From the NCBI GenBank assembly GCA_963706575.1, contig CAVPNL010000016.1:1-50036 (forward strand): a stretch of 50,036 bases of DNA, written 5' to 3'. The notes beneath the pieces were generated by a model. The model saw nothing but the letters and a program-made list of their open reading frames with translations. It was not told the DNA's origin and did not search any database. Below, piece by piece: positions 32,911 to 49,332 of the stretch (the stretch's first letter is position 1; each line of letters begins with the position of its first letter). The translations under genes and the position numbers were made by a program. Source of the stretch: an uncultured delta proteobacterium. Lineage in GTDB: Bacteria; Desulfobacterota; Desulfobacteria; Desulfobacterales; JAHEIW01.

Positions 32911-32957
32911 AATGAATCGGATTTAATTAGAAATTTTGATTTAGTTCTGCTCTGCTC

Positions 32958-32986
32958 TTGACAAAGCTATCCGCTCCATATAAATA
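32958..32986 (+). promoter_or_regulatory. Candidate sigma70 promoter of the acsD operon
   Basis: TTGACA followed after 15-17 nt by TATAAATA. Confidence 0.4.
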
Positions 32987-33296
32987 GCAATATTCTGCAT
33001 TTAGCGCTTTTGGGAGACGACCTTTTTGATGCGGGGCGGTAACCCTCTCGATTCAAATCTAAAAATAGAATTTCCTGTTTTTTTTGCCGCGCCGACTCCG
33101 AAAAAGATATTAAATCTACTATTACAGTTTGTAGATTCGATGAAAAAAATGATGAAAGGGGGGCTGACTGAAAACAGAAAATGGGGCTGGTTGCAAGTTT
33201 GCCCCTAAAGTGGTTTGGCTATCGTAGCTTGCATCACTTTTTATGTAAATCAACTCAATCGCTCAAGGAAAATGGAAACAGAACAAGGAGGTAACA

Positions 33297-34862
33297 TTGG
33301 GTTTCGAATTTGCAAAAGAAACATATTCCGGCGGAATAAAGGAAATTACGCTTGGCCAGGGAGACAAGGCCGTGACAGTCGGCGGAGAGAGCTGTTATCC
33401 GTTTTACAGTTTTGAAGGTGAGATGCCCCATAAACCCAAAGTTGCCATGGAGATCTGGGATCTTGAACCGGAGGAATGGCCGGAAGCGGCTTTGAGTCCG
33501 TTTAAGGATGTGATCTCGGATCCGGCAGCCTGGGCTAAAAAATGCGTCGACGAATACGGGGCGGACATGATTGTGCTGCAATTAAAGAGCACCGATCCCA
33601 ACGGAAAAGACGCCAGCGCTGATGACGCCGCCGCCACCGTTAAAAAAGTCCTCGCAGCCATTGATGTGCCCTTGATTATCTGGGGTACGGCCAGTGTGGA
33701 AAAAGATGAGGAAGTGCTCAAGAAAATTGCCGAGGAATGCCAGGGTAAAAACCTGATCCTGGGTCCGGTGGAGGACAAAAATCACAAAGGCATCGGTGCG
33801 GCCGCCATGGGTTTCGGGCATACGGTAATTTCGTCATCGCCCATCGATGTTAATCTGGCCAAACAGTGCAATATTTTACTCGAAAATCTGGGGGTGTCGA
33901 TGGATAAAATGATTATCGATCCCACCACCGGGGGCCTGGGATACGGTTTGGAATATTCCTACTCGGTGATGGAACGTATCCGCATGGCAGCCCTGGCCCA
34001 GGGGGACGACAAACTGCAATTGCCCCTGATCAACAATCTCGGGAATGAGGTCTGGAAATGCAAAGAAGCCAAGCAGACCGTCGATGAAGCACCCACTCTC
34101 GGTGATCCTGAGAAACGCGGTATTTTAATGGAAGCGGTTGGCGCCGTAGCCTATCTGATGGGGGGCTCCGACGTGTTGATGATGCGCCATCCCGAATCCA
34201 TTCGGCTGGTCAAATCCTATATCGATCTGGTTTATGACGGCGGTAAGGCCGATGACGTTGCTGCGATTAAAAAGCAAATTGACGCGGTCGATGTTGATTT
34301 GCTGGCGCTTTCCCCGGAGCCGGATTTGACCATCGCAGAAGAAAAGAAAGCGGCGCCGGCCAAGAAAGCGGCTGCAGCCAAACCGGAGAAGAAGGCAGCA
34401 CCGGCTGAAAAAGCAGCAGCTCCCGAGCCGGAAAAGAAGGCAGCGGCTCCTGCTGAACCCGCAGTGGCTGAAGCGCCGAAAGCCGAAGCTGCGCCCGAAA
34501 CGGATGCAGCTGCAAAAGCCGAGGCTGAAGCCAAAGCCAAGGTTGAAGCCGCGGCCAAGGCCGAAGCGCAAGCCAAAGCGGCCGAAGAAGCCCAGGCCAA
34601 GGCTGAAGCCGATGCCAGAGTCAAAGCCGAAACGGAAGCCAAGGCCAAAGCCGAAGCCGATGCTCAAAAAGCCGCTGAGGAAAAAGCCAAAATCGAAGCT
34701 GAGCTCGATGGAATCAGACAGAAACGGGCCAAAGAACGTGCCGATCTGGCTGCCAAGCGCGCAGCTTCTGAAAAGGAGACGGCTAAAAAGACCCCGGCAG
34801 CCGTTCAAAAATCGATGACGGAGAAGATGATCGATAATTTGAACTGGATCCACAAACGCTAA
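33297..34862 (+). CDS. acsD: Corrinoid Fe-S protein small subunit (CdhD/delta) with a long Ala/Glu/Lys-rich C-terminal extension
   Basis: VGGESCYPFYSFEG, SPIDVNLAKQ, DPTTGGLGYGLEYSYSVMERIR, MRHP; TTG start after AGGAGGT. Confidence 0.92.
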   Translation: MGFEFAKETYSGGIKEITLGQGDKAVTVGGESCYPFYSFEGEMPHKPKVAMEIWDLEPEEWPEAALSPFKDVISDPAAWAKKCVDEYGADMIVLQLKSTDPNGKDASADDAAATVKKVLAAIDVPLIIWGTASVEKDEEVLKKIAEECQGKNLILGPVEDKNHKGIGAAAMGFGHTVISSSPIDVNLAKQCNILLENLGVSMDKMIIDPTTGGLGYGLEYSYSVMERIRMAALAQGDDKLQLPLINNLGNEVWKCKEAKQTVDEAPTLGDPEKRGILMEAVGAVAYLMGGSDVLMMRHPESIRLVKSYIDLVYDGGKADDVAAIKKQIDAVDVDLLALSPEPDLTIAEEKKAAPAKKAAAAKPEKKAAPAEKAAAPEPEKKAAAPAEPAVAEAPKAEAAPETDAAAKAEAEAKAKVEAAAKAEAQAKAAEEAQAKAEADARVKAETEAKAKAEADAQKAAEEKAKIEAELDGIRQKRAKERADLAAKRAASEKETAKKTPAAVQKSMTEKMIDNLNWIHKR

Positions 34863-34941
34863 CACAAATCGACCGTCAATGGCACCTGTTTTCATTAACC
34901 ATTGACGGCAAATTCAAATTAATAGTGGGGAGGAACCACAT

Positions 34942-36997
34942 ATGCCAGAAACAATTGACAACAAACAAGCTAAACCCGAAAAGGCCAAAAAAGTTGCCGA
35001 TCCGGTGGCTGCTTCTACTGATCCGGCCAGCCAGCAGATGATGCGGCGCGCCCAGGAGCTGGGCGTAGAGACCATTTTTGATCGGGCGGTCAACATGAAA
35101 CCCTGCAACATCGGCATCCAGGGCACCTGCTGTAAAAACTGTGCCATGGGTCCCTGCCGCCTGCCGCTTCCCAAAGCCGGGATCGAAGGTGAAGACGATC
35201 GCAAGGGCTTGTGCGGCGCCACCGCCAATACCATCGCGGCCCGCAATTTTGCGCGCATGGTGGCTGCCGGTTGTGCGGCCCATTCGGATCACGGGCGTAA
35301 TGTGGCGGAAGTATTTTTGTCGGTCGCCAGCAAAGAAACCGGCGATTACAAAATTAAAGATCCCAACAAACTGCTGGCGATTGCACCCCATTTTGGGGTG
35401 GACATCAAAGTCGAGGTCGATGGTGAGGAAGTCGACCGCAATTTTGATGAAATTGCACTCGAGGTGGCCCAAAAGGCCATGGCCGAATGGGGCAAACCCG
35501 ACGGGCGAGCTGGATTATCTCAAACGTGCACCTCAGCCCCTTTATGAACGCTGGCAGAAGCTGGGCGTGCTGCCGCGCAACATCGACCGGGAAGTCGTAG
35601 AAATCATGCATCGCACTCATATGGGCGTGGACCAGGACTACAAAAACATCGTCAAACAATGCACCCGCGCCGCACTGGCCGACGGGTGGGGCGGTTCCAT
35701 GATGGCCACCGATCTGCAGGATGTCATGTTCGGCACACCGTTTCCCCTCCAATCTGAGGCCAATCTCGGCATCATGAAAGAAGACCAGGTCAATATCATC
35801 ATTCACGGTCATGAACCGGTCTTATCCGAGATGATCGTGGCGGCGGCCCAGTCAAAGGAAATGGTGGACTACGCCAAAACCAAAGGGGCCAAGGGTATTC
35901 AGCTGGGCGGCATTTGCTGCACCGGCAACGAAATCCTGCAGCGTCACGGCGTGCCGCCGGCCGGCACTTTCCTGCAGCAGGAGCTGGCGATTGTCACCGG
36001 CGCCTGCGATGCCATGGTCGTTGATGTTCAGTGTGTTTTTCAGAACCTGGCCAACGTGGCCAAATGTTTCCATACCAAATTGATCACCACCCATCCGATT
36101 GCCCGCATGGAACAGGACAATGTGGTGCACATCGAATTCGACGAGCATCATGCCATGGAAGACGCCAAAAAAATCGTCAAAATGGCCATCGACAACTTCG
36201 AAAACCGCCACGTCGATGTGATGATTCCCGCTCAGAAGGCCGCGCAGATTGCGGGTTTCGGGGTGGAGTCGATTCAATATCACCTGGGGGGCACCTTCCG
36301 CGGTTCTTATTACACCCTGAATGATAACATCATCAACGGCCGCATCCGGGGTGTTGCCGGTGTGGTGGGCTGCAACAACGCGCGTACGCGTCATAACGAA
36401 GCCCATCTGACGCTGGTCAAGGAATTGATCAAAAATGACGTCATCGTGCTGACCACCGGCTGTAACGGAATCGCCTGTGCGATGGAAGGCCTGCTGACAC
36501 CGGGAGCCGCGCATGTTTACTGCGGGCCGGGTCTGGCCGAGGTTTGCGAGACCGTGGGTATCCCGCCGGTGCTGCATCTGGGATCCTGTGTGGATAACAG
36601 CCGGATTCTGCTGGCGGCCACCGAGGTGGTCAAAGCCGGCGGCCTGGGCAATGACATCCAGGATCTGCCGGCAGCCGGGGCCGCTCCGGAATGGATGAGT
36701 GAAAAGGCCATCAGCATCGGCCAGTATTTTGTGGCCTCAGGTGTGTATACCCTGTTTGGTGTGAATCTGCCGACCACGGGTGCACCGGTCTTCCAAAAAT
36801 ATTTGTTTGAGGAGCTGGAAAAAATATACGGCGGCAAGTGGGATCTTGCAGTCGATCCGTTTGAAATGGCCCAGAAAATGATTGCCCATATCGACAAGAA
36901 ACGCAAGGCGCTCGGTATCGACAAAGCGCGCGAGCGCGTCCTGATGGATATGGCCGATCGTCAGAAGCTTGAAGCACAATTAGGAATTAACAATTAA
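34942..36997 (+). CDS. cooS: Anaerobic Ni-CO dehydrogenase catalytic subunit (AcsA); frameshift near 35505
   Basis: CCKNCAMGPC, AAHSDH, HGHEP, GICCTGNE, DVQC, VVGCNN, TTGC, GSCVDNSR, WMSEKA. Confidence 0.93.
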
Positions 36998-37027
36998 TAA
37001 TAAATCCTCAAAGAAGGAGGAAACTGT

Positions 37028-39241
37028 ATGTCTAAGTTAGTTGCATTTGCCGCGATTCAAGGTGGCTACAACGTTGTATCGCAGGTTGAAGGTGAATATC
37101 AAAAAGCGCTGGATACCTTTAACGCGGATACCAAGGTGGGCTTTCCCAACACCGCCTACTATCTGCCGGTCATTTATTCGCTGTTGGGAATTAAAGTTGA
37201 AACCCTGGAAGACATTCAAAAAGCGCTGGATGTGACGCGCAAACTTTTGCCGCCGCATATCAAAGGCATGAACCATTTGCCTTACCTGGGGCCGCTGCTG
37301 GATGCCGGTATGGCCACCCTGTTTGCCTTTGAGATCAGGGAGGCGCTACGCTACTTGAACGAACCGGATTTTTACCTGCATTCCGAAGATATCGATGAGG
37401 AAGCCGGAAAAATCTGGCTGGGGGCCGCCGATGATACCGTCTTTCGCAAACGCGGGGTCGAGTTTGTGGACGGTTCCGCACCGGGCTTTGCCGCCATTGT
37501 AGGGGCTGCACCGGATCCCGAAATCGCCAAAATGATTGTCGAGGAATACCAGAGACGCAGTCTTTACATTTTTCTGGCCGCCGGTCACAATAACACCTCG
37601 GTGGCCCAGCAGTTGCTCGAAGCCGATGTTCAGATCGGCTGGAACACGCGAATTGTGCCATTCGGTCCCTATATTTCGTCGGCCATTTTTGCCCTGGGTT
37701 TTGCCAACCGGGCGGCCATGGCCTTCGGCAACGTTCAACCGGGGGATTATAAAACGATGCTGATGTACAATAAGAACCGCATCTTTGCCTTCGTGAATGC
37801 CCTGGGTGAAGTCGGAACCGATTGGGCCGGTGCGGCCGCGGGATGCGTCAACTGGGGTTTTCCGACCCTGGCCGACACCGATATCCCCGAGGTTCTGCCC
37901 ACCGGAATCTGTACCTATGAGCACGTGGTGGCCAACGTGTCCCATGAAGAAATGGTCCAAAAATCGGTTGAAGTCCGCGGCTTGAAGGTGAGTGTGTCGG
38001 CGATCGAGATTCCCTGCTCTTTCGGGCCGGCCTATGAAGGTGAGCGCGTGCGTGGCGCGGATCTGTATGCCCAGATGGGCGGCGGTAAAACCCAGTGTAC
38101 CGAGCTGGTCAAGATGGCTGAAATGAATGAAATCGACGACGGCAAAGTCGAGGTTATCGGCCCGGACATCACCGAAATTAAAGAGGGCGAGACCATGCCG
38201 CTGGGCATTTATGTCCGGATTGCCGGGCGTGAATTTCAGACGGATTTTGAGCCGATCATCGAGCGTCAGATCCATCACCTGATCAACTATATTCAGGGGA
38301 TCATGCATATCGGTCAGCGCGATATTTCCTGGATCCGGGTCAGCAAAGCGGCCATTGAAAAAGGCTTTACCCTGAAGGATATCGGTACGGTGCTGCATGC
38401 CAAGTTCCACCAGGATTTTCAGAAAATCGTCGATAAGGTCCAGATCACGCTTTATACCCAGAAAAAGGATGTGGATGAACTGACCAAGCGCGCCCGGGCC
38501 GAATACAAGACCCGCGACGAGCGTGTCGAGAAGATGACCGATGAAGATGTGGAAACCTATTATTCCTGCACCCTGTGCCAGTCATTTGCCCCCAACCATG
38601 TGTGCACTGTCAGTCCCGAGCGGACCGGATTGTGCGGGGCCTATAACTGGATGGACTGCAAGGCCTCCTTTGAAATCAATCCCACCGGCCCCAACCAGCC
38701 GATCGAAAAGGGCGAATGCCTGGATCCGGTCCTGGGCCAGTGGCAGGGGGTCAATGAATTTGTGCGAAAGGCCTCGCGCGGGGCCGTCGATCACTATAAC
38801 TTTTATTCCATGGTCTATGACCCCATGACCACCTGCGGTTGCTGTGAATGTATTGCCGCCATGTTGCCGCAATGCAACGGCATCATGACGGTTGGCCGGG
38901 ATTACAGCGGGGAAACCCCCTGCGGCATGAAGTTTACCACCCTGGCCGGTGTCATGGGCGGCGGGGCATCCTCGCCGGGTTTTGTGGGGCATTCCAAATT
39001 CAACATCACCCAGGGCAAGTTCATCCTTGGGGATGGCGGTATCAAGCGCCTGGTGTGGATGCCCAAGGGCCTGAAAGATGAAATCCGCGAGCGGCTGATT
39101 AAACGGGGTGAAGAAGTCGGAATGCCGGATCTGGTTGACCGCATTGCGGATGAGACCGTCGGTGTCACCGAGGAAGAGATTCTATCCTTCCTGCAGGAGA
39201 AAAAACATCCGGCGCTGGAAATGGATCCGCTGATCGGATGA
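37028..39241 (+). CDS. acsB: Acetyl-CoA synthase subunit
   Basis: FPNTAYYLP, YSCTLCQSFAPNHVC, GLCGA, PMTTCGCCEC A-cluster ligands. Confidence 0.96.
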   Translation: MSKLVAFAAIQGGYNVVSQVEGEYQKALDTFNADTKVGFPNTAYYLPVIYSLLGIKVETLEDIQKALDVTRKLLPPHIKGMNHLPYLGPLLDAGMATLFAFEIREALRYLNEPDFYLHSEDIDEEAGKIWLGAADDTVFRKRGVEFVDGSAPGFAAIVGAAPDPEIAKMIVEEYQRRSLYIFLAAGHNNTSVAQQLLEADVQIGWNTRIVPFGPYISSAIFALGFANRAAMAFGNVQPGDYKTMLMYNKNRIFAFVNALGEVGTDWAGAAAGCVNWGFPTLADTDIPEVLPTGICTYEHVVANVSHEEMVQKSVEVRGLKVSVSAIEIPCSFGPAYEGERVRGADLYAQMGGGKTQCTELVKMAEMNEIDDGKVEVIGPDITEIKEGETMPLGIYVRIAGREFQTDFEPIIERQIHHLINYIQGIMHIGQRDISWIRVSKAAIEKGFTLKDIGTVLHAKFHQDFQKIVDKVQITLYTQKKDVDELTKRARAEYKTRDERVEKMTDEDVETYYSCTLCQSFAPNHVCTVSPERTGLCGAYNWMDCKASFEINPTGPNQPIEKGECLDPVLGQWQGVNEFVRKASRGAVDHYNFYSMVYDPMTTCGCCECIAAMLPQCNGIMTVGRDYSGETPCGMKFTTLAGVMGGGASSPGFVGHSKFNITQGKFILGDGGIKRLVWMPKGLKDEIRERLIKRGEEVGMPDLVDRIADETVGVTEEEILSFLQEKKHPALEMDPLIG

Positions 39242-39262
39242 TAAAAATATAGTTGAGTGTTC

Positions 39263-39355
39263 ACGGGTATACGGGTTACGGGTTGCGTGTTTAATAACCG
39301 AATACGCAATCCGTAATCTTAACCCGCAACACGCAACTCGCAACACGCAACTCGT
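39263..39355. repeat. Hairpin of tandem 7-nt ACGGGTT/CGCAACA units
   Basis: Inverted heptamer arrays in the acsB-acsC gap. Confidence 0.65.
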
Positions 39356-39371
39356 AGAGAAGGAGATAAAG

Positions 39372-40712
39372 ATGGCATTAACCGGTATTCAGATTTTTAA
39401 ATTACTGCCGAAAACCAACTGCAAGGAATGCGGTGTTCCAACCTGCCTGGCATTCGCCATGAATCTGGCTTCGGGCAAGGCGGAACTGGACAGCTGCCCG
39501 TATGTCTCTGATGAGGCCCGGGAGCAACTGGCTGAGGCTTCAGCACCGCCCATCCGCCCGGTTGCCGTTGGAAAGGGCGTTCGTGCCGCCACCACGGGGG
39601 GGGAAACCGTTCAGTATCGTCATGAAAAAACCTTTTATAATCCTACCCTGCTCGCAGCGACAGTCGCATCCGACATTGCCGAATCGGATCTTGAAACCAA
39701 ACTGAAGGCCTGGAACGCATTACAGTATGAACGGGTCGGATTGAATCTGCGGCCGGAACTGGTGGCCCTTAAAGATGTCAACGGCGACAAGGATGCATTT
39801 GCCAGCACCGCCAAGAAAATTGCCGAAACCTCTGAGTTCAACCTGGTGCTGATGACCGAAGATCCGGGCGTAATGAAGGCGGCCGTCGATGTCTGTGGGT
39901 TCAAGCGACCGTTGATGTATGCCGCCACCGACAATAATGTGGATGACCTGGGGGCGATCGCCAAAGAACAGAATTTACCCCTGGCGGTGCGGGCTGATTC
40001 GGTGGAAGGCCTGGTTCCGCTGACCGAAAAGCTTGACGGGATGGGTGTCAAGGACATTGTTCTGGACCCGGGTTCCAGGGAAATCAAGCAGGCCCATCAG
40101 GATCAGGTGGCGATCCGCCGGGCGGCCTTAAAAGACCTGAACCGTTCGGTGGGCTATCCGACCATCACCTTTCCGTGCGAGATGGCCTCCAATCTGGACA
40201 TGGAGACCTTGATTGCCGGGACATTTGTCGCCAAATACGGCGGCATTGTCGTTCTTTCGGATTTTGCCGGTGAAAGCCTGTTTCCGCTCCTGCTGGAACG
40301 CTTGAACATTTATACCGATCCCCAGCGGCCCATGACGGTAACCGAGGGCATTTATGAAATCAATAATCCGGATGAAAACTCACCGGTACTGGTCACCACC
40401 AACTTTGCACTGACCTATTTTATCGTTTCCGGTGAAATAGAAGGCAGCCGGGTTCCGTCTTATTTGCTGATCAAGGATTCCGAGGGGCTTTCGGTAATGA
40501 CGGCCTGGGCCGCCGGCAAATTTGCCGGTGATGAAGTCGGCATGTTTGTGAAGAAATCTGGCATCGCTGACAAGGTCAAGCATCAGGAACTCATCATTCC
40601 GGGCTATGCCGCAGCCATTGCCGGAGAGGTTGAGGAAGAATTGCCCGGCTGGACGATTACGGTCGGACCCAGGGAAGCAGCGCATATTCCTGGATTCCTT
40701 AAAGCCAGGTAA
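39372..40712 (+). CDS. acsC: Corrinoid Fe-S protein large subunit (CdhE/gamma)
   Basis: LPKTNCKECGVPTCLAFA...CP, NIYTDPQ.P, TTNFALTYF, TAWAAGKF. Confidence 0.96.
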   Translation: MALTGIQIFKLLPKTNCKECGVPTCLAFAMNLASGKAELDSCPYVSDEAREQLAEASAPPIRPVAVGKGVRAATTGGETVQYRHEKTFYNPTLLAATVASDIAESDLETKLKAWNALQYERVGLNLRPELVALKDVNGDKDAFASTAKKIAETSEFNLVLMTEDPGVMKAAVDVCGFKRPLMYAATDNNVDDLGAIAKEQNLPLAVRADSVEGLVPLTEKLDGMGVKDIVLDPGSREIKQAHQDQVAIRRAALKDLNRSVGYPTITFPCEMASNLDMETLIAGTFVAKYGGIVVLSDFAGESLFPLLLERLNIYTDPQRPMTVTEGIYEINNPDENSPVLVTTNFALTYFIVSGEIEGSRVPSYLLIKDSEGLSVMTAWAAGKFAGDEVGMFVKKSGIADKVKHQELIIPGYAAAIAGEVEEELPGWTITVGPREAAHIPGFLKAR

Positions 40713-40720
40713 AATCACAC

Positions 40721-40873
40721 GGAATATTGGAATACTGGAACAATGGAATATGGGGTAATAAGAAACGGAAGATTACTTGCTTTAAAATCGTGTATGTTTT
40801 TGCCTGTTTAATACAAGCAACTCATTTGCGCAAAACCCATTTTTCCATGATTCCACAATTCCATTATTCCAAT
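40721..40873. repeat. Hairpin of tandem 8-nt TGGAATAT/ATTCCA units
   Basis: GGAATA(T/C)T-type units x4 inverted against TTCCA units x4, in the acsC-acsE gap. Confidence 0.65.
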
Positions 40874-40908
40874 TGGGGCGAAGCCCCCAACTGTGGGAGG
40901 GAGGGTGT

Positions 40909-41799
40909 ATGTATTTAATAGGAGAAAGCTTAAACGTCATATCTAAAAAGATCGGTACCGCTTATAAAGAACGGGATCCAAAGCCGATCCAGGAAGAAGC
41001 CCTTTTCCAGAAGGAAAAGGGGATGGATTACATCGACATCAACCTCGGTCCGGCCAAAAAAGACGGCCATGAACTGATGCCCTGGGTGGTGCAGACCGTT
41101 CAGGAAGTTGTGCCGGATGTGCCGCTGGCATTGGATACGTCCAACATCGATGCTATTGAGGCTGCGCTCAAGGTCTATAAAGAAACGCCCCTGCCGCCGC
41201 TGATTAACTCCATCATGGTCCGTCCCGAGCGTTACGAACGCATGGTTCCTTTGGCCGCAGAGCACAATGCGGACTTCATTGCACTGATGTGGGGGCCGGA
41301 AGGACTACCGCGGGATGAAAACGAACGGGCGGCACTTTGCGTTGAGCTGGTTTATTTTGCCAATGAAGCCGGTATCCCCAATGATAAGATCTGGGTCGAC
41401 GGCATCGTTACCCCCGTCAACATTCAGCAGCCGCAGCTCATAAGCCTGATGACCTTTCAGGAAATGTTGCCTGAAATTACACCGGAGGCCAAAAGTACCT
41501 GCGGGCTGTCCAATATTTCAAACGGGCCACCGGATCATCTGCGACCCATTCTCAATCAGACCTATATGGTCATGCTTGAAAAATATGGCATGTATTCCGT
41601 TATTGCAGACCCGTTGGATGACACCCTGATCGATATTGCCAAAGGCAAACGCCAGGACATTGTTGATCTGATATACGGGATGCTGGACGGCAACGAACCC
41701 GATATGGGCGCGCTTTCCGAGGAAATGCAAAATTACGCCAAGACCGTTAACGTGATCCTTGGAAAGACACTGTATTCGGATTCATGGCTTGAGCTTTAA
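40909..41799 (+). CDS. acsE: Methyltetrahydrofolate:corrinoid Fe-S protein methyltransferase
   Basis: Pterin-binding barrel IGESLN, DINLG, LDT, INS, GLSNISNG; last gene of the acs cluster. Confidence 0.85.
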   Translation: MYLIGESLNVISKKIGTAYKERDPKPIQEEALFQKEKGMDYIDINLGPAKKDGHELMPWVVQTVQEVVPDVPLALDTSNIDAIEAALKVYKETPLPPLINSIMVRPERYERMVPLAAEHNADFIALMWGPEGLPRDENERAALCVELVYFANEAGIPNDKIWVDGIVTPVNIQQPQLISLMTFQEMLPEITPEAKSTCGLSNISNGPPDHLRPILNQTYMVMLEKYGMYSVIADPLDDTLIDIAKGKRQDIVDLIYGMLDGNEPDMGALSEEMQNYAKTVNVILGKTLYSDSWLEL

Positions 41800-41832
41800 A
41801 AGCCACGTCCATTATCCATCGAACGAAATTTC

Positions 41833-41867
41833 AAAAAAGCCTCTCCCGGCATGGGAGGGGTTTTTTT
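41833..41867 (+). terminator. Intrinsic terminator of the acs operon
   Basis: A6-GCCTCTCCC-loop-GGGAGGGGT followed by a T tract. Confidence 0.75.
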
Positions 41868-41945
41868 CTTTTTACAGGCAGATTCAGGTCAATAGTTGTT
41901 GCGTGCTTTTCAATAAAGCTGTGAAACGTGAGCCCATCGGCAGAG

Positions 41946-42013
41946 AGCATAGCGCATGGCGCATAGCGTTTTGACAACCCGCAACCCTTTGCGCTATGCC
42001 CCATGCGCTATGC
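41946..42013. repeat. Hairpin of tandem GCATAGC/GCTATGC units
   Basis: GCATAGCGCATGGCGCATAGCG vs GCGCTATGCCCCATGCGCTATGC. Confidence 0.7.
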
Positions 42014-42231
42014 CCAATCCTCGAACCCCTTGGGTTTCCTTGAAATCGGACGCGATCTTTGATACGCTGAAGGTCTTGACAGGCGCAGGATTACTGATGA
42101 CTATTTTATCATTCAGGTTAACGAATTAAACCAATCGAACCAATTAAACCGATGTAACGTTTGAAACTTAAACTGGACTCTGTACCTGGCAACTTAACTT
42201 GGTTTTCCCTATCATTGAAGGAAAACAGACT

Positions 42232-45200
42232 GTGACGGTTAAATCCAAAGCCCTTGAAATCAATCTGGCCGACTATCATGTTGATGTCGACATAGATGAA
42301 AAATATGCCATCCTTCAGGAAGTGATGTCTAAATATTACGGCCTGATGGAAGGGTTGAACACCTTCCTGAAAGAGCTCTCCCATCCCTATAAAAATTGGC
42401 GCTTTATTGTGACGGAAACCCGGAAATATTCTCTCGAATATTTTCATCTGATTAAAAACCATCCCAAAGGACCGACCGCGGCAAATCTTTTTAGCGGTAT
42501 ATTCTTTGATGCGGTGGAGTCGGATGTTGAAATGGCTGTGAAGGTCGATGCCATTGATAACCTGCAGCTGTTTTTGCAGAAAGTCGTAAAGGAATCCGAC
42601 TCAAATCTGGAGACATTTTTACCGTTTATCAACAGTGCCCTTTTGCGAATTGCCAATTTGCCCGACGATCATTTTGCCCTCTTTACCCGCAGCTATTATC
42701 AAATCAATCGGCTGGCTGAGACCTTTCTAAACTGCGCGCCTAAAACCGATGGTGTTTTTAATGCCATCAACCGGCTGCTAATGAAATTTTATAACTTTAC
42801 CTATGATTATTGGCTGGCAGAAAGTGATCCCCAAGCATGGTTTGAAGCGGAAGTTTCTGAAATTAAGTCGCAAAACGAATACGGGGAGTTTTTTAAGTTC
42901 ATTTCCCATTCGCAGCTGCAAAACTGGAAGCACCAGCTGGATCGGATTGCAAACGCAAAAAAGCAAAAATCCGACAAAGTACTGGCCTTACTACTGGCGC
43001 TTCCCGGATATAGCCAGATTGTAGATGCCTACCGCCGGATCCCTGCCGGTCTGCTAAAAAGCGGGAACGAAAATGGTCGCGGACGGCATCTGAAGCTCAT
43101 TTTCCTGTTTCAAATCATGAATGTTGCCGGGCTTTCGCTGATCCACGAGGAAACCCTAAGGGAGATTAACCAGACCCTGGGCTGGATCATTGAAAATGAA
43201 AATTACCGCCACATCCAAAACCTGATCCAGAAGACATTTTCTATTTTAAAAGAGCGCGCCAGTATGTACCCGGCCACGGCCCTTAATTGTGTGCTGAATA
43301 TGGGCAAAGGCGTTTATAAAACCGATGATATCGACCTCATTAATTATTTTATCGATTCGGTCATCGATTTGGGTTTTGCCGCGCCCAATATTCGAGGTGT
43401 GGACAATAACTGGCAGATACAGGTGAACAAAACCCACATCTTAAATATTCGGACCTGGCTGGAGTTGATCGAATTAGATCCAAAACGGTCCACCCGCTTG
43501 CTATCAGCCCTGATCATCCATCTGTCCCTTTACGGTGTGTTTATCAAGGATATTGATCTTTTTCCGCGTGACATTACCCAATTTTTAAACAGTGGCATCA
43601 GTTCCGTATTTAACCTTGCCAAACAGCTGACACGACTGTTTCCGGTATATTTCAATGATATTGGTGCCGAGGGCAAGCTGCGGGATATATCCACGCGCAT
43701 TGATGAGATTACCCAGCGCCACGATATTCTAATCCATTTTTTAAGAAAGCAAAGCCACGTGGAAAGCAGCAACCGCATCATCGATCTGATGGCGGCGGTC
43801 CTTTATTTCTGGCAAACACGAGATAAGACCCGCCTTTCGCCCCATTTGCCGCCGGTGATTTATGATCAGATCGATACGCAAGGACCTTACATCGATGGCG
43901 TTTTTCAAATTATGGCACAATTAAGGCAAAAGGGGATTCGCGATCCGAATGATCTAATTGCAGTTAGCGAAAAAAACGTCAAACAATGGCTGGCGACAAT
44001 TAAAGGTGTGCCCGACTCGGATGTTCAGCGCGTTGAGCTGGCGGCTGTCTTTTACAAGATTTTGAACGAGAAATATAATTTCGATTTAATTGAGCAGGAT
44101 GCTTTCCTGGCCCAGCTCAGAACCGGGGCGTTGCCGGATTTGAACCGGTTGGAGCAGGCGTTTGCAGAATCTGATTTGCATAAACGACTTTTTCTGCTGC
44201 TTGAATATATGGAGAAACTACAGGCGGTTATTCTGTCTGATGAATCCTTTGAAATCCGACAGGATATTTATAAAAAAAGACATATTACCATCGATATACC
44301 GTCGATGTACGGCAGTTATCATGAAATGAAGTTTGACTGTCTGGGGCTTTCCTTTCGAATCGAGTCTCTGGTCAATGTTCATTTTGAGGAGCTCATTGAG
44401 GATATTGATCTCAGCCTGATTACCAAAGCCACTTTTCACCAAATTTACAGTTTGCTGAGGCTTTTTGACAGAGCATTGAAACTGGACGGAATTTCATCGA
44501 AAGAATTCGAACGCCAGCTCGAATTTCTGGCCCATTCTCTGGAAGTCAAAGGCTTCACGTTAACCCAATACCTGGATATTTTTAAAGGATTTGCCCAGGC
44601 CGTTAAGAACATCGTCAATGATTATTTTAATAACATTCATGGGCAGAACCTGACCCGGATTTTAGCCCAGACGCCGCCCGATGCGCTGCAGCCAAAATTT
44701 TTGACGAGTGAGGAAGCCATTGACAGCGAAAAACAGCAGCATCGGGTTTCGGAGATCTTTTTCCGCGACCGCATTGCGCTGAGCCTGGGGCTGCAACAGC
44801 TCGATTTGTTCTTAAGTCGGATTTTAAGCACCCTTTTTCAACAGTCCTACAAATTACCCAAAGACAAGCTCCAGCGGCTGCTTCTTTATGATCCGCAGAA
44901 TGCCATAACGCCGATTGACTCATCCTTAGCGCGCTTAACCGGAATCATATACCTGGGCAATAAAGGGCTCAACATGGTGCGGCTGAAAAGTTTCGGGTAT
45001 CCGGTGCCGCCGGGTTTTATCATCACCACCGAAGTGTTTCGCTGTCGGGAAATCATTCAAAGCTACCCGCCGGCCGAGCAAAATTTTAGGGGAAAAATTT
45101 TACAAAATATTTCGACACTGGAAAAAGCCACCGGTAAAGTTTTCGGTGACAGCCAAAACCCGTTACTGCTTTCGGTGCGCAGCGGCTCCGCTATATCCCA

Positions 45201-46428
45201 GCCCGGGATGATGGATACCCTGCTGGACGTCGGTAACAATGAAGAAATTACAGAAGGCATCGCCAAACAAACGGGCAATGCCTGGTTTGCCTGGGACAAT
45301 TACCGCCGGTTTTTGCAATGTTACGGGATGGCTTTTGGCTTGAAGCGCGATGATTTCGATGCGATTATCAGTGAGTCCAAACAACGGCTGGGAATCCCGC
45401 TGAAAAAAGAATTTACCGGAGATCAAATGCGCGAGGTTGCGCTGACCTATAAAGACCTGATTCACGATGCCGGCATCGAGGTGGCTGAAAGCCCCTATGA
45501 GCAGCTGCACCTGGCCATCAAGGCGGTTCTGACCTCCTGGGAATCACCAAGGGCCATGGCATATCGTCGGATTATGGGAATATCAGAGGACTGGGGCACG
45601 GCCGTTACCGTTCAGTCTATGGTCTATGGCAATATATCCCAGCAGTCAGGCAGCGGTGTTGTCTTTACGCACAACCCTCGGTGGTCCGGCGATACCCTTA
45701 AACTCTGGGGGGATTTTACCATCGGCAACCAGGGAGAAGATGTTGTCTCCGGATTGGTAAGTACCATGCCGATTTCGATTTTCCAGCAAGAAATTGAAAT
45801 GCGGGAAACCGACGTCACCTTGGAGACCCATTTTCCGGAGATTTATCGGGCCTTAAAAGATTGGGCTCATGAGCTGATTGATGGAAGGGGGTGGAGTCCG
45901 CAGGAAATTGAGTTTACCTTCGAAGGGCCCTCACGTGATGATTTGTATTTGCTCCAAACACGCGATATGGCCATTCGGGAACGCAAAGCGGTGCTGACCT
46001 TCGATTTTGAGGAAGATCCCCAGGCCTTGTATCTGGGACACGGTGTCGGCGTCAGTGGCGGTGCCATGAGCGGTCGTCTGGTATTTACCCTTGAAGAGAT
46101 CGAAGAATGGCGCCTCATGGATCCCGGTACGCATTTGATTCTGGCCCGCAACGACACCGTACCGGATGATATTCAGGAAATTCATGCCGCCGATGGGTTA
46201 TTGACCGCCCGGGGCGGGCTCACCTCTCATGCAGCGGTTATTGCGCATCGGCTGGGAAAAACCTGTGTGGTGAACTGTACCAATTTGGATTGCAATGAAA
46301 AGGAAAAGTATTGCGAATTTAATCAATTAAGAATTAGATCCGGGGAGCACATCAGCATCGACGGCCACGAGGGTTCGGTTTATCAGGGTTTGACCAAAGT
46401 TACAGAAACCAGGAAAGGAGCAAAATAG
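42232..46428 (+). CDS. Giant PPDK-like dikinase: ~900-aa unknown N-terminal region + ATP-grasp + phospho-His domain, no pyruvate/PEP barrel
   Basis: LGNKG, PVPPGFIITT, SVRSGS..SQPGMMDT, QGEDVVSG, EIEFTFE, LLQTR, GGLTSHAAV, ISIDG..G; the protein ends there. Probable GTG start at 42232 after GAAGGA. Confidence 0.85.
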   Translation: MTVKSKALEINLADYHVDVDIDEKYAILQEVMSKYYGLMEGLNTFLKELSHPYKNWRFIVTETRKYSLEYFHLIKNHPKGPTAANLFSGIFFDAVESDVEMAVKVDAIDNLQLFLQKVVKESDSNLETFLPFINSALLRIANLPDDHFALFTRSYYQINRLAETFLNCAPKTDGVFNAINRLLMKFYNFTYDYWLAESDPQAWFEAEVSEIKSQNEYGEFFKFISHSQLQNWKHQLDRIANAKKQKSDKVLALLLALPGYSQIVDAYRRIPAGLLKSGNENGRGRHLKLIFLFQIMNVAGLSLIHEETLREINQTLGWIIENENYRHIQNLIQKTFSILKERASMYPATALNCVLNMGKGVYKTDDIDLINYFIDSVIDLGFAAPNIRGVDNNWQIQVNKTHILNIRTWLELIELDPKRSTRLLSALIIHLSLYGVFIKDIDLFPRDITQFLNSGISSVFNLAKQLTRLFPVYFNDIGAEGKLRDISTRIDEITQRHDILIHFLRKQSHVESSNRIIDLMAAVLYFWQTRDKTRLSPHLPPVIYDQIDTQGPYIDGVFQIMAQLRQKGIRDPNDLIAVSEKNVKQWLATIKGVPDSDVQRVELAAVFYKILNEKYNFDLIEQDAFLAQLRTGALPDLNRLEQAFAESDLHKRLFLLLEYMEKLQAVILSDESFEIRQDIYKKRHITIDIPSMYGSYHEMKFDCLGLSFRIESLVNVHFEELIEDIDLSLITKATFHQIYSLLRLFDRALKLDGISSKEFERQLEFLAHSLEVKGFTLTQYLDIFKGFAQAVKNIVNDYFNNIHGQNLTRILAQTPPDALQPKFLTSEEAIDSEKQQHRVSEIFFRDRIALSLGLQQLDLFLSRILSTLFQQSYKLPKDKLQRLLLYDPQNAITPIDSSLARLTGIIYLGNKGLNMVRLKSFGYPVPPGFIITTEVFRCREIIQSYPPAEQNFRGKILQNISTLEKATGKVFGDSQNPLLLSVRSGSAISQPGMMDTLLDVGNNEEITEGIAKQTGNAWFAWDNYRRFLQCYGMAFGLKRDDFDAIISESKQRLGIPLKKEFTGDQMREVALTYKDLIHDAGIEVAESPYEQLHLAIKAVLTSWESPRAMAYRRIMGISEDWGTAVTVQSMVYGNISQQSGSGVVFTHNPRWSGDTLKLWGDFTIGNQGEDVVSGLVSTMPISIFQQEIEMRETDVTLETHFPEIYRALKDWAHELIDGRGWSPQEIEFTFEGPSRDDLYLLQTRDMAIRERKAVLTFDFEEDPQALYLGHGVGVSGGAMSGRLVFTLEEIEEWRLMDPGTHLILARNDTVPDDIQEIHAADGLLTARGGLTSHAAVIAHRLGKTCVVNCTNLDCNEKEKYCEFNQLRIRSGEHISIDGHEGSVYQGLTKVTETRKGAK

Positions 46429-46430
46429 GC

Positions 46431-47693
46431 ATGGGCAAAGACAGGTTACATTCAGACGGTAACAGGTTGGGTGTAAACGGGTTTGGCCGGATTGGCAAAC
46501 TGACACTCTGGCACCATGTCGGACGCAAATATTTCGATGAAATAATTGTCAATATCGGACGACAGCCGGGATCATGCCTCGAAGACATTGCCCATTATGT
46601 TGAACGGGATTCAACTTACGGTTGGCTGCACGGTTATCTTCACGGACATACAGCTGAACCGGTGATCAGCGATCTGGATGAGGAAAACGGATCGATGGTT
46701 ATTGATGGCGTCAAGGTGAGCTTTCTGCGATCACAGCGGAATCCGGCTGAAATTGGATGGGGCGATCAGGGCGTTCAGCTGGTCGTCGATACCACCGGTC
46801 AGTTTCTGGATCCGACGCTCGAACCGACTCAAACCGGGGGCGCCCTCAGGGGTCATTTAGAGGCCGGTGCTGAAAAAGTAATTGTTTCTGCCCCGTTTAA
46901 GTTTAAAGACAAGGGCACGGCTGTGCCCGAAGATGCGGTGACCACCGTGATGGGAATTAATGAAACCGACTATGACGCCAGGCGTCATAAAGTCATTTCA
47001 AATGCTTCTTGCACGACAACCTGTCTGGCGCATATGGTGAAACCCTTGATTAATGCCTTCGGTCCTAAAAAGATCATGTCGGCATCCATGGCCACCGTTC
47101 ATGCTGCCACCGGGTCGCAAGAGGTGCTGGATCGGCTTCCGAAAACCGGAAAAGTCGATCTTCGAAAAAACAGAAGCATTTTGAACAATATCATTCTAAC
47201 CACCACCGGCGCCGCCAATACATTGAGATTGGTAATTCCGGAAATGGAAGAAATCGCCTTCATTGCTGAATCCGTCCGAATCCCGGTTCAGACCGGATCA
47301 TTGATCATCCTGGTGATTAACCTTCAGGAAGAGCCGAGTGGCCCATTTATCACCCGGGATGACATCAATGCCATATTTGAGCAGGCGGCTGCAGAGAACG
47401 CCCATGGCTACCTTTACTTTACGAACAAACAGAATGTTTCCTGCGATATTATCGGCATTCCGCGGGTTGCCGCTACAATTGAAGGGCACGAAACCCACAC
47501 TCGGACGGCAGAGGCCACGATTGATCTGAAAAAAGTACCAGGTCTGGAAAAGGAAGCTATGGCCAATCTCCATCAGTCAATTATCCGGGTGCCGGTCACC
47601 CAGGCCGTTATCTATGGCTGGTATGATAATGAAATGGGAAGTTATGTGAATATGCTGGGGGATCGTACGGTATCCATTGCAGAGGATATGTAG
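46431..47693 (+). CDS. gap: Divergent glyceraldehyde-3-phosphate dehydrogenase-family protein (420 aa)
   Basis: GVNGFGRIG, DSTYG, SNASCTTTCL, VHAAT, WYDNE. Confidence 0.8.
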   Translation: MGKDRLHSDGNRLGVNGFGRIGKLTLWHHVGRKYFDEIIVNIGRQPGSCLEDIAHYVERDSTYGWLHGYLHGHTAEPVISDLDEENGSMVIDGVKVSFLRSQRNPAEIGWGDQGVQLVVDTTGQFLDPTLEPTQTGGALRGHLEAGAEKVIVSAPFKFKDKGTAVPEDAVTTVMGINETDYDARRHKVISNASCTTTCLAHMVKPLINAFGPKKIMSASMATVHAATGSQEVLDRLPKTGKVDLRKNRSILNNIILTTTGAANTLRLVIPEMEEIAFIAESVRIPVQTGSLIILVINLQEEPSGPFITRDDINAIFEQAAAENAHGYLYFTNKQNVSCDIIGIPRVAATIEGHETHTRTAEATIDLKKVPGLEKEAMANLHQSIIRVPVTQAVIYGWYDNEMGSYVNMLGDRTVSIAEDM

Positions 47694-47795
47694 GGGGGCT
47701 ATCTGAAGAATATCCCTTTCAGTCACCCGAGCGGACCGATTGGGGAGATTAACCATTACAATCAGGAGTAATGGAGTGCTGGAGCATATAATATT

Positions 47796-47880
47796 TCGGA
47801 TTGCAGATTGCAGATTTCGGATTTAACTGCGCAGAATGCCTGATATTACAATCTGCAATCCGCAATCTAAAATCCGCAAT
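47796..47880. repeat. Hairpin of tandem 7-nt TTGCAGA/AATCCGC units
   Basis: TTCGGATTGCAGATTGCAGATTTCGGATTT vs AATCTGCAATCCGCAATCTAAAATCCGCAAT, between convergent genes. Confidence 0.7.
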
Positions 47881-47973
47881 TTATTTTCTCCATCACTCCG
47901 GCATCTTGTGGCTTCTGAGTTAAACGACCTGAACAGCCACTCATTGGGCCGACAGAGTGAACGGTTTGAACCG

Positions 47974-48270
47974 TTATTCCGCAAATCCGTAATGAAAGAT
48001 CTCGTAATCTGTTTGGCCGCCCAGCAGGGCATCGATCTGGCCTTGAATCTGTTGGCGATCACTGCTTTGCACCCATCGTTTCCAGTCATCCGATGTTTCC
48101 CATGTGCTGATCACCAGGAATTCGCCCGGCTTTTCAAGATTTCGCATTGTTTCTCCGGTAATATAACCGGGCTGTTCATTTGCAAGCGTGCGCATCTTGC
48201 GGAACAGCGGGATCATTTTTCTTGCCTTGTCTTCAGGCACGTTTCGCCGAATCAATATTTTAACTGCCAT
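47974..48270 (-). CDS. Antibiotic biosynthesis monooxygenase (ABM)-family protein
   Basis: QPGYITGET, FLVISTWETSDDW; RBS GGAGG. Confidence 0.85.
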   Translation of the reverse strand: MAVKILIRRNVPEDKARKMIPLFRKMRTLANEQPGYITGETMRNLEKPGEFLVISTWETSDDWKRWVQSSDRQQIQGQIDALLGGQTDYEIFHYGFAE

Positions 48271-48346
48271 TGGGTCCTCCCTTTTAGGATAGACGGATTA
48301 AGCTATTTTTGTTCGCTTTAAAACATAATATTACTGCGCCACCGGG

Positions 48347-49210: not shown

Positions 49211-49250
49211 AATAGTTCGGTTCGTGTTTATTTTAGGCAAAACAATTTTC

Positions 49251-49332
49251 ACCACAAAGGCACCAAGAGCACAAAGAAGTGAAAAAATATCTCTTCTAAT
49301 GTTTTTCTTTGTGTGCTTTGTGCCTTTGTGGT
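49251..49332. repeat. Hairpin of tandem 9-nt CACAAAG/CTTTGTG units (half-copy also at ~28840-28868)
   Basis: ACCACAAAGGCACCAAGAGCACAAAG vs CTTTGTGTGCTTTGTGCCTTTGTGGT. Confidence 0.7.

Follow-up and report, generated by a model that had tools for sequence, protein, structure and literature searches.

Dikinases of the swivelling-histidine superfamily combine an ATP-grasp domain, a mobile phospho-histidine domain, and a separate acceptor domain. In pyruvate phosphate dikinase (PPDK; EC 2.7.9.1; TIGR01828; structure 1KBL), the ATP-grasp is followed by the His swivel, and the acceptor domain is a PEP/pyruvate barrel. Rifampin phosphotransferase (RPH) and the phenolic dikinases HpeHI, CreHI, and PpsAB likewise contain an ATP-grasp and a C-terminal His swivel and, according to portions of the text of PMC12167813, carry a non-barrel acceptor domain, which sets a precedent for new acceptors. 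The glucan water dikinase StGWD1 is a large dikinase whose acceptor region precedes both its His domain and its ATP-binding domain (excerpts of PMC13553574). Phosphoglycerate kinase (PGK; EC 2.7.2.3) produces 1,3-bisphosphoglycerate (1,3-BPG) while converting ATP to ADP, with no phospho-enzyme. Among the glyceraldehyde-3-phosphate dehydrogenases (GAPDHs), Bacillus subtilis GapB is an NADP-preferring anabolic paralogue.

The window analysed here is a stretch of 50,036 nucleotides from an uncultured member of the Desulfobacterales. It encodes a dikinase-like protein, DIK, and a GAPDH paralogue, GAP2, arranged as follows:

30967..41799, + strand: acsV-acsD-cooS-acsB-acsC-acsE, the upstream Wood-Ljungdahl cluster, adjacent in this lineage only (Pfam, NCBIfam, synteny)
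41833..41867, + strand: terminator-like hairpin between acsE and DIK, 16 pairs followed by a T-rich tail (top site of a consensus scan; a pattern match only)
42232..46428, + strand: DIK, dikinase-like, 1398 aa; N-terminal alpha domain, PPDK-type ATP-grasp, and phospho-His swivel, without a pyruvate barrel (ORF, Pfam, homologue lengths)
42232..43371, + strand: DIK residues 1-380, HEAT-like alpha-solenoid (AF2 model; generic helical-repeat matches only; conservation profile)
43411..44364, + strand: DIK residues 394-711, conserved core and putative acceptor site (alignments)
44389..44901, + strand: DIK residues 720-890, long helical bundle running into the ATP-grasp (AF2 secondary structure)
44953..45987, + strand: PPDK-type ATP-grasp of DIK with K911, R983, E1225, E1227, Q1242, and R1244 (PF01326; Foldseek; conservation in 72 homologues)
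46009..46425, + strand: phospho-histidine swivel of DIK, GGLTSHAAV, with the His1333 codon at 46228-46230 (PF00391; VIA-align)
46431..47693, + strand: GAP2, class I GAPDH, 420 aa, with family-specific insertions and catalytic C194 and H224 (Pfam, NCBIfam, alignments, motif counts)

DIK is a PPDK-like dikinase without the barrel

DIK occupies one open frame on the plus strand that begins at 42199 (TTG) or 42232 (GTG) and ends at 46428. Its close homologues are mostly 1393-1398 aa long and cover the whole of the N-terminal query based on 42232, so 42232 is the likely start; residue numbers are counted from there. The only Pfam matches are PPDK_N (residues 908-1252) and PEP-utilizers (residues 1302-1381). 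A sequence-only reading of this DNA had described intact PPDK nucleotide-binding motifs and a GGLTSHAAV loop but no C-terminal barrel. The domain matches confirm the motifs, with His1333 as the phospho-His, and PEP-utilizers_C (PF02896) has no match in DIK, which ends after the His domain. The same reading had called the N-terminal region Leu-rich; its 13% Leu is simply helical composition, and a leucine-rich repeat was rejected given the all-helix model and the lack of a Pfam match. No fusion of DIK to GAP2 or PGK was found among proteins of 2448-5000 aa, which is weak evidence, or among the best near-length matches listed.

The match to Clostridium symbiosum PPDK (1kbl) is limited to 1kbl residues 17-512 (E 3e-94; ~35% identity). 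The ATP-grasp superimposes on 1kbl with an rmsd of 3.0 Å (Foldseek E 1e-33), and the swivel aligns to 2fm4 with Z 16.2 and rmsd 2.5 over 128 residues (VIA-align). The ATP-grasp and His residues are retained in 70-72 of 72 DIK homologues. Equivalents of PPDK K22, R92, E323, Q335, and R337, which we take to be nucleotide and Mg residues, are present in 71-72, and the phospho-His within GGxTSHAA is found in all 72. DIK differs from PPDK in three further respects: a 900-aa alpha domain lies N-terminal to the ATP-grasp, ~35 residues that separate the ATP-grasp and His domains in PPDK are absent, and the D321 equivalent is Glu in 70 of the 72.

The absent barrel and scores below the curated PPDK cut-offs (TIGR01828, 410 vs 843 bits; NF004531, 320 vs 456 bits) bear out the earlier proposal that DIK is not a canonical PPDK. 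The ATP-grasp is far closer to PPDK than to PEP synthase (E 3e-94 vs 3e-16), and DIK falls short of the PEP synthase model TIGR01418 (78.9 vs 739.75 bits), whose barrel it also lacks. It likewise fails the RPH model (33.6 vs 999 bits). In RPH, HpeHI, and PigC, the acceptor domain sits between the ATP-grasp and the His swivel, whereas in DIK the His domain directly follows the ATP-grasp and the alpha domain precedes both. Structural matches to 5hv1 and 9goj are confined to the ATP-grasp, which is PPDK-type rather than RPH-type. The RIF-binding fold is not listed for the N-terminal model, in which the core (residues 380-720), not folded alone, is barely covered. Glucan water dikinases (GWDs) have the order CBM-CBM-central-His-ATP, opposite to the alpha domain-ATP-His order of DIK, and an ATP domain closer to that of RPH. 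No CBM match was found in the N-terminal regions tested, and the GWD central-domain fold is not among the fold-search results, from a library that may not include that structure. DIK thus has the ATP-grasp and mobile phospho-His of the swivelling-His superfamily, and its invariant N-terminal core suggests a separate acceptor domain. The ATP-grasp tree has long outgroup branches and was not used to place the origin of the family.

The N-terminal alpha domain contains a near-invariant charged core

The ~900-aa N-terminal region is predicted with confidence to be all-alpha (AF2, pLDDT 90.8), and this model rules out a circularly permuted PEP/pyruvate barrel, a fold that the earlier reading had considered. 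Residues 1-900 have no match among solved folds in structure searches with the model: Foldseek gives query TM values of at most 0.18, and the best VIA-align hit is a designed repeat (Z 10.4, rmsd 7.3, 154 aligned). Pfam yields no useful match in 15 DIK-family N-terminal regions, a PDB profile search returns designed helical repeats only, and an Atlas search recovers the family's own clusters or nothing. The core (residues 380-720) was not folded by itself and could still adopt a known fold.

Conservation is weak across the solenoid, apart from the helix SxALxxNL at its N terminus and the motif ELxHPY, and is concentrated in the core. Seventy columns of the conservation profile reach 90% or more, and 54 of these fall within 401-550 and 651-750. 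Invariant or nearly invariant core residues are H402, D440, D442, E480, R484, D491, R505, K506, H509, K614, K682, R683, H684, and S691; the Arg, Lys, His, and Asp positions are invariant in 52 full-length sequences that include many distant ones. Such a set is like that expected where an anionic small molecule and a metal bind. The domain shows no similarity to PGK (hhalign probability 0.3%), which is unrelated to DIK in both fold and sequence. In one hemerythrin-fused DIK cluster the catalytic His and Arg are gone and most N-terminal residues remain; in this single lineage the otherwise invariant R683 is also changed.

GAP2 is a probable NADPH-dependent GAPDH

As the earlier reading stated, the GAPDH-like gene starts 2 nt past the DIK stop, its ORF beginning at 46431. 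Like class I GAPDHs and plastid GapA, GAP2 carries both Gp_dh_N and Gp_dh_C and retains the catalytic Cys and His together with both the Ps and Pi sites: S193, C194, T195, H224, T227, R248, T259, and R283 occur in 48 of 48 members and G260 in 43 of 48. It differs from them in its conserved, family-specific insertions (members are mostly 406-449 aa long) and in missing the TIGR01534 equivalog cut-off (320.7 vs 367.2 bits). The NAD-binding Asp is replaced by N41-x-G43-R44, with N-x-G-R invariant in 48/48, whereas 34 of 35 canonical GAPDH neighbours have N-D at this position. In GAPDH, Asp32 contacts the 2'-OH of NAD and clashes with NADP (from part of PMC3728087). Because the Asp is lost and an invariant Arg has been gained, GAP2 seems NADP-like and is probably NADPH-specific. 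In 4 of 69 genomes (G026, G064, G375, G065), no GAPDH other than GAP2 was found; given this and the retained catalytic and phosphate-site residues, the substrates of GAP2 are most likely glyceraldehyde 3-phosphate (GAP) and 1,3-BPG.

DIK and GAP2 are inherited together

Contrary to the earlier claim, DIK is not an orphan: 1962 of 7999 scored candidates are related proteins, and 128 of 401 sampled genomes of the phylum have matches. Carriers comprise about a third of these genomes, some Bacteroidales, and Magnetococcus. Both genes occur in 124 of the 401 and neither in 270; GAP2 without an intact DIK is seen in 3. The remaining 4 have DIK only, as two chance-level matches, one fragment, and one internally deleted gene, so no intact DIK is found without GAP2 in this sample. 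In distant families DIK adjoins gap and often pgk-tpi-secG. The conservation of the pair that the earlier reading had asked about is upheld. GAP2 forms its own GAPDH clade, inherited together with DIK. Its tree agrees with that of DIK in 13 of 15 splits, slightly better than the 10 for the tree of canonical gap. Mirror-tree correlation fails to separate GAP2 from canonical gap (r 0.935 vs 0.923, 24 loci).

Where DIK-family proteins are named, they are mostly called pyruvate phosphate dikinase, so metabolic reconstructions assign them a reaction whose binding domain DIK lacks. No description of the family was found in the literature searched, with most subscription journals outside its scope. 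The only literature match to the name "phosphoglycerate dikinase" was a rice proteomics paper.

The conserved neighbourhood is glycolytic/gluconeogenic

Adjacency to the Wood-Ljungdahl cluster is lineage-specific: acsE is present in 58 of 78 close DIK loci, 1 of 40 across the phylum, and none of 40 metagenome loci. A specific tie to this pathway, claimed earlier, is not supported: 22 of the 124 genomes with the pair have no acsB match and 164 acsB genomes lack the pair. The strong terminator-like hairpin between acsE and DIK also speaks against it. In two other families, canonical ppdK follows acsB-acsC(-acsE) in the slot of DIK (L228-L230).

GAP2 adjoins DIK in 31 of the 40 loci across the phylum, some GAPDH does so in 35, and pgk lies within the locus in 13; the order gap-DIK-gap2-pgk-tpi-secG recurs in several families. 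In the 40 loci from metagenomes that P0158 retrieved (the cluster is named Bacteroidales), GAP2 adjoins DIK in 26 and some GAPDH in 34; in 9, GAP2 is not adjacent. Where the two genes are unlinked, GAP2 often lies beside pgk and DIK beside canonical gap. Across these 80 distant loci, the recurring neighbours are gap, gap2, pgk, tpi, secG, and an rpoN-rapZ housekeeping block, with no recurrent transporter or pathway gene for another small substrate. A glycogen-synthase-like gene (cluster c20) is near DIK in a few loci. Because an rpoN-ptsN-rapZ block is often upstream, DIK was considered as an ATP-dependent PTS Enzyme I; this was dropped, since the annotated neighbour clusters include no recurrent HPr gene and most carriers have a separate Enzyme I-sized protein.

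PGK and PEP-forming enzymes are retained

PGK is found in 78 of 79 DIK carriers, and 8 of 8 family relatives of the exception (G381) have it. PGK has therefore not been displaced, and free 1,3-BPG would cycle back through it; DIK as a PGK replacement is not supported. In 63 of 65 carriers there is a PF02896 barrel protein, in most cases a full-length PPDK or PEP synthase. The other two (G012 and G087) have DIK and PEPCK without any PF02896 match, so PEP supply is covered without DIK. A stand-alone barrel subunit, which the earlier reading had envisaged, is not needed and is ruled out for G012, G087, and family f37, whose 11 genomes have a single PF02896 match within a full-length, PEP-synthase-sized frame. 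The PF02896 frames of the present genome include C5 (772 aa).

In published proteome tables of D. biacutus, canonical GAPDH scores 742 and 691 and PGK 542 and 191, against 70 and 139 for the presumed GAP2, and the tables have no entry for the presumed DIK; orthology in this case is inferred from synteny and length only. RNA runs gave matching contigs from relatives only, with small word shares. In 3 of 4 runs these contigs reach every one of the 30 bins, and two of the contigs bridge the DIK-GAP2 junction; neither observation proves transcription or a single transcript.

3-Phosphoglycerate as a candidate acceptor

We tentatively favour a reading, put forward as an idea in the earlier reading too, in which DIK is a PPDK-derived dikinase that has 3-phosphoglycerate (3-PG) as its acceptor and makes 1,3-BPG for an NADPH-dependent GAPDH, and we regard it as a real possibility that falls short of even odds. 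Judging by homology and residue conservation, the ATP-grasp would pyrophosphorylate His1333, transfer the γ-phosphate to Pi or water, and release AMP. The architecture suggests that the His domain would then swing to the basic, Asp-rich core of the alpha domain, where, from gene context and chemistry, the carboxylate of 3-PG may be phosphorylated to 1,3-BPG. GAP2 would reduce this to GAP, with handover or tight regulation presumably stopping PGK from reversing the DIK step. On textbook values, conversion of 3-PG to GAP via PGK is uphill by about +12.6 kJ/mol; spending two phosphoanhydride bonds brings it to about -2.5, or to -22 kJ/mol with pyrophosphatase. DIK might thus serve as a conditional booster of gluconeogenesis at low energy charge, beside the PGK/GAPDH route.

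This reading draws on the retained ATP-grasp and His residues, the core residues, the co-occurrence with GAP2, the gap/pgk/tpi neighbourhood, the likely GAP2 substrates, and the supply of PEP by other enzymes. Against it stand the retention of PGK, the three genomes with GAP2 but no intact DIK, the low or absent proteome signal, the unlinked GAP2 genes beside pgk, the 9 of 40 metagenome loci where GAP2 is not adjacent, the lack of PGK likeness, and the near-equal tree congruence.

Several of the same observations would suit a protein dikinase or energy-sensing GAPDH regulator, an unlikely role but one worth weighing. Here the solenoid would bind GAP2 or a gap/GAP2 oligomer, and a phospho-His state tracking ATP, AMP, and PPi would phosphorylate or switch GAP2, which would then work with ordinary PGK. 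HEAT-like solenoids such as this one of 380 residues are typically protein-binding scaffolds, the insertions of GAP2 are conserved and specific to its family, PGK is kept and often adjoins GAP2, the proteome signal is low or absent, intact DIK depends on the presence of GAP2 whereas GAP2 can do without intact DIK, and the hemerythrin-fused cluster keeps most N-terminal residues after losing its catalytic His and Arg. The invariant residues, however, are mostly charged and lie in the compact core rather than the solenoid, the His-less cluster also alters R683 (one lineage), and the dikinase acceptors described in parts of PMC12167813 and PMC13553574 are small molecules or glucans.

Less probable again is a different small anionic acceptor of two to four carbons, close to the triose pool (glycerate, 2-phosphoglycerate, erythronate, glyceraldehyde, or acetate), with GAP2 catalysing a linked redox step. 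The active-site conservation fits such an acceptor as well as it fits 3-PG, PGK retention would be explained without a futile cycle, and the superfamily has often adopted new acceptors; against this, GAP2 looks like a true GAPDH, and the 80 distant loci offer no recurrent transporter or pathway gene.

That DIK is a pyruvate dikinase, its helical core binding pyruvate/PEP convergently within a gluconeogenic operon, is improbable. The PPDK-type ATP-grasp, the ppdK genes in the same acs slot, and the two DIK carriers with no barrel protein point that way, but those two have PEPCK, barrel proteins occur in this genome and in 63 of 65 carriers, and the co-presence and co-absence with one GAPDH paralogue would be left unexplained.

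Most improbable is the same 3-PG/1,3-BPG chemistry run catabolically, in a PPi-dependent lower glycolysis (from glycogen, for example) in which GAP2 makes NADPH and 1,3-BPG and DIK recovers ATP from AMP and PPi; the phosphate-dikinase reaction would be near equilibrium (+3.8 kJ/mol on textbook values), a glycogen-synthase-like gene is near DIK in a few loci, and the family has members in Bacteroidales. Against it, sugars go unused by most sulfate reducers (part of PMC4046663), and GAP2 is the only GAPDH found in the small acsB genomes G026, G064, and G375, where the anabolic direction is needed.

Implications

Whatever its acceptor, DIK, which is widespread among anaerobic bacteria, represents a new family of dikinases that is tied to core carbon metabolism and has an invariant site and a large putative acceptor domain modelled with confidence. 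The DIK/GAP2 pair suggests that sugar synthesis includes a step or control point not yet described. If DIK modifies GAPDH, it would be a new kind of His-relay protein kinase. If it instead makes 1,3-BPG, as we tentatively favour, it would add a new enzyme activity to a textbook step, one otherwise treated as having a single phosphorylating chemistry, and would make 3-PG reduction favourable at low ATP/ADP. The fuller proposal, that DIK and GAP2 form an undescribed 3-PG-reducing module in which a dikinase that converts ATP to AMP and has a new acceptor fold makes the acyl-phosphate 1,3-BPG by way of a phospho-His swivel and passes it to an NADPH-GAPDH, is possible but on balance doubtful. Were it true, energy-limited anaerobes would gain another route, with a strong pull, for the PGK/GAPDH step, and production of 1,3-BPG by DIK would be relevant to slow-growing sulfate reducers, syntrophs, and engineered CO2-fixing pathways.

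Domain organization of the dikinase-like protein

The dikinase-like gene (DIK) is intact in the window, and the gene for its GAPDH-like partner (GAP2) begins 2 nt past its stop, as first read from the sequence. The features of this region are as follows:

41833–41867: terminator-like hairpin of 16 pairs, between acsE and DIK
41940–42016: GC-rich inverted-repeat-like element seen in the sequence, past the acsE terminator and ahead of the DIK start
42199 (TTG) or 42232 (GTG) to 46428, + strand: DIK, single open frame
46431–47693, + strand: GAP2, 420 aa, 2 nt after the DIK stop

The start at 42232 is favored because close homologs are mostly 1393–1398 aa long, and residues are numbered from this start. 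A Pfam scan matches DIK to PPDK_N and the mobile His domain and to nothing else. C. symbiosum PPDK aligns over its first 512 residues only (E = 3e-94), confirming the earlier view that DIK carries the PPDK-type ATP-grasp and phospho-His domains and lacks the pyruvate/PEP barrel. The PEP synthase match is far weaker (E = 3e-16), and DIK falls below the NCBIfam cut-offs for both enzymes. Equivalents of PPDK K22, R92, G101, R135, D280, E323, Q335, R337, T453, and H455 are kept in 71 or 72 of the 72 non-identical sequences of DIK that were compared, 70 of which have Glu where PPDK has D321. A predicted model of residues 251–1398 (pLDDT 90.2) superposes on 1kbl with an rmsd of 3.0 Å, although the link from the ATP-grasp to the His domain is shorter in DIK than in PPDK. 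Residue conservation and this model together predict that the C-terminal half is a working PPDK-type ATP-to-phospho-His machine.

The predicted fold of residues 1–900 is almost wholly helical (pLDDT 90.8, pTM 0.85), comprising a solenoid, a core with one β-hairpin, and a long bundle. This model rules out a circularly permuted PEP/pyruvate barrel, one of the alternatives that the sequence-only reading had set against its proposal. Foldseek and VIA-align returned only generic helical repeats, and Pfam, PDB-profile, and Atlas searches of the region found no family; by fold searches with the region as a whole, it is likely a new fold. Fifty-four of the 70 columns with at least 90% conservation fall in residues 401–550 and 651–750. 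A comparison of 52 full-length sequences, including many distant ones, shows no variation at H402, D440, R484, D491, R505, K506, H509, K614, K682, H684, or S691. Such a set would suit a putative site that binds a small anionic molecule together with a metal. DIK homologs in the P0160 cluster (P0383–P0388), as well as P0153 and P0180, are fused to hemerythrin; the cluster has Tyr in place of His1333, Gly in place of Arg983, and His in place of Arg683, and is a probable catalytically dead offshoot, possibly oxygen-sensing.

DIK resembles the swiveling-His dikinases in reusing the ATP-grasp and His domains with a different acceptor domain (PMC12167813 and PMC13553574), but differs in domain content or order from PPDK, PEP synthase, rifampin phosphotransferase/HpeHI, and glucan water dikinase, and belongs to none of them.

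Properties of GAP2

All 48 GAP2 sequences retain the two catalytic residues, Cys and His, along with both phosphate sites, though G260 is kept in 43. An N-x-G-R motif is invariant in this set where 34 of 35 neighboring canonical GAPDHs have N-D. Since GAPDH Asp32 binds the NAD 2′-hydroxyl and must rotate away for NADP (PMC3728087), the replacement suggests that GAP2 prefers NADP over NAD. Of 69 genomes tested, 4 have GAP2 as their sole PF02800 match: G026 and G064, which are 100% complete in single contigs, G375 (100% complete), and G065 (93%). GAP2 is therefore most likely a genuine GAPDH. The source genome also holds three other gap genes, pgk, and canonical ppdK. At loci L129, L130, and L187–L201, the canonical-length gap beside DIK is itself divergent, its Pi-site Thr-Gly changed and, at L129, the Thr that follows the catalytic Cys as well. 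This looks like decay or specialization of that gap; GAP2 is intact there.

Conservation and spread of the gene pair

Of 78 close loci, 69 have GAP2 immediately downstream of DIK, 8 are too short to show it, and 1 lacks it there. The same arrangement occurs at 31 of 40 loci picked phylum-wide and at 26 of 40 metagenome loci retrieved with a Bacteroidales-type query, of which 5 are too short and 9 lack it; several of these loci are near-identical. The pair is conserved, as the sequence-only proposal required. A GAPDH gene of some kind adjoins DIK at 35 of the 40 phylum-wide and 34 of the 40 metagenome loci. Several families share the order rpoN-hpf-(ptsN)-rapZ-(EIIA)-rimI-gap-DIK-gap2-pgk-tpi-secG, which places the pair inside an ordinary operon of gap, pgk, and tpi; of its positions, this one is probably the older. 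DIK is tightly coupled, genetically, to one GAPDH paralog. After removal of 8 near-duplicates from 48 linked pairs, the two trees of the remaining 40 have 31 of 37 splits in common and no strong split in conflict. Across 18 loci, canonical gap is almost as congruent with the DIK tree (10 of 15 splits) as GAP2 (13 of 15), indicating co-inheritance rather than specific co-evolution.

The family numbers 1962 proteins among 7999 scored candidates and 597 matches among 50%-identity representatives, with source names including Desulfobacterales, Desulfotignum, Thermodesulfobacterium geofontis, Magnetococcus marinus, and Bacteroidales. Among 401 genomes of the phylum, 128 have a DIK match and 127 a GAP2 match at E of 1e-75 or lower, with both in 124 and neither in 270; kin in this set are not independent, so the co-occurrence carries no p-value. 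Four genomes are DIK-only (two matches at E about 1e-4, one fragment, one internally deleted gene) and three GAP2-only, one with a DIK remnant upstream. Partly positive families agree, with identical genomes for both genes (f12, 8 of 12; f20, 2 of 6). Natural decay of DIK is seen at L235 (G284), a short remnant with stops ahead of intact GAP2, and L236 (G077), an internally deleted 455-aa form. A literature search, with subscription journals mostly outside its coverage, found no publication describing the family, nor is it mentioned in 12 of 28 places of a PEP-pyruvate node review (PMC8100219) or in the available parts of PMC4046663 and PMC5371819.

A near-duplicate of window 39265–50036 (G000:C21:22219-33001; 97.6% identity, 67 gap openings) is probably an assembly or strain variant. 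Its differences cluster in 39000–45000, with frameshifts and many indels in the DIK 5′ half, and 45000–49000 is identical; the source genome's contamination figure is 6.4%. Elsewhere in the window, purB (1174–2133), an M16 peptidase gene (7370–10544), pspF (23597–24665), and cooS (34942–36997) look short or split, suggesting indel errors in assembly that leave DIK and GAP2 unaffected.

The Wood-Ljungdahl neighborhood

The specific tie to the Wood-Ljungdahl cluster first read from the window is not supported. An acsE gene lies upstream of DIK in 58 of 78 close loci, 1 of 40 phylum-wide loci, and none of 40 metagenome loci; acsB occurs in 102 of 124 genomes with the pair and in 164 without it. 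Together with the hairpin, this distribution makes acs adjacency a feature of this lineage. The source genome has many short dispersed repeats. In two other families (L228, L229, L230), canonical full-length ppdK follows acsB-acsC(-acsE), the slot of DIK in this lineage, which suggests that the slot attracts assimilatory genes.

Candidate reaction and alternatives

Tentatively, and with some doubt, we favor DIK as a 3-phosphoglycerate (3-PG) dikinase feeding an NADPH-GAPDH. The ATP-grasp would phosphorylate the His of the mobile domain, that domain would swing to the conserved second site in the N-terminal core, 3-PG would accept the phosphate there, and the product would be handed to GAP2, running toward GAP. 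On textbook energies, conversion of 3-PG to GAP costs +12.6 kJ/mol via PGK, against −2.5 via a dikinase and −21.7 with pyrophosphatase. Formation of an acyl-phosphate is within reach of a phospho-His of the PPDK kind, which equilibrates with PEP. The favored reading agrees with the original idea of 1,3-bisphosphoglycerate from 3-PG and draws on the coupling to a GAPDH paralog, the predicted PPDK-type His machinery, and the putative second site. All but one of 79 DIK carriers have PGK, in a few cases just a fragment or a divergent copy. The one without a match, G381, is 99% complete in 3 contigs and has DIK and GAP2 (L170, L173, L178, L179); PGK is present in 8 of 8 family relatives, so G381 offers a natural test case unless its assembly has a gap there. 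DIK therefore does not replace PGK, whose retention counts against a 3-PG dikinase and would require channeling or regulation. Also against it, GAP2 often stays beside pgk where the pair is split.

In D. biacutus, the last genes of the acs cluster carry the annotations "PEP synthase/PPDK (01642)" and "dehydrogenase (01643)" (PMC4103992); position and the 415-aa length make them presumed orthologs of DIK and GAP2. A search of the supplement tables showed low scores for 01643 (70, 139), no entry for 01642, and higher scores for canonical GAPDH, PGK, and PPDK, so in the growth conditions used there the main route was probably a different one.

DIK could instead be a kinase or regulator of the GAPDH, which we consider unlikely. 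The putative anion site could serve another small acceptor, a rather improbable reading. Pyruvate as acceptor gains a little weight from the ppdK genes found after acs genes in the two other families, yet is quite doubtful. In tests of the ALTERNATIVES, 63 of 65 carriers proved to have a barrel protein, its frame the size of Enzyme I, PEP synthase, or PPDK; eleven f37 genomes have one, PEP-synthase-sized, and G012 and G087 have none and carry GTP-PEPCK. Hence no separate barrel subunit completes DIK, a possibility raised at the outset, and PEP supply is independent of it. The same 3-PG chemistry run catabolically is very improbable.

Whatever its acceptor, DIK represents a genuine dikinase family that is widespread and mis-annotated. 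Its putative acceptor domain is apparently new, and it is coupled to a GAPDH predicted to be of the NADP type.
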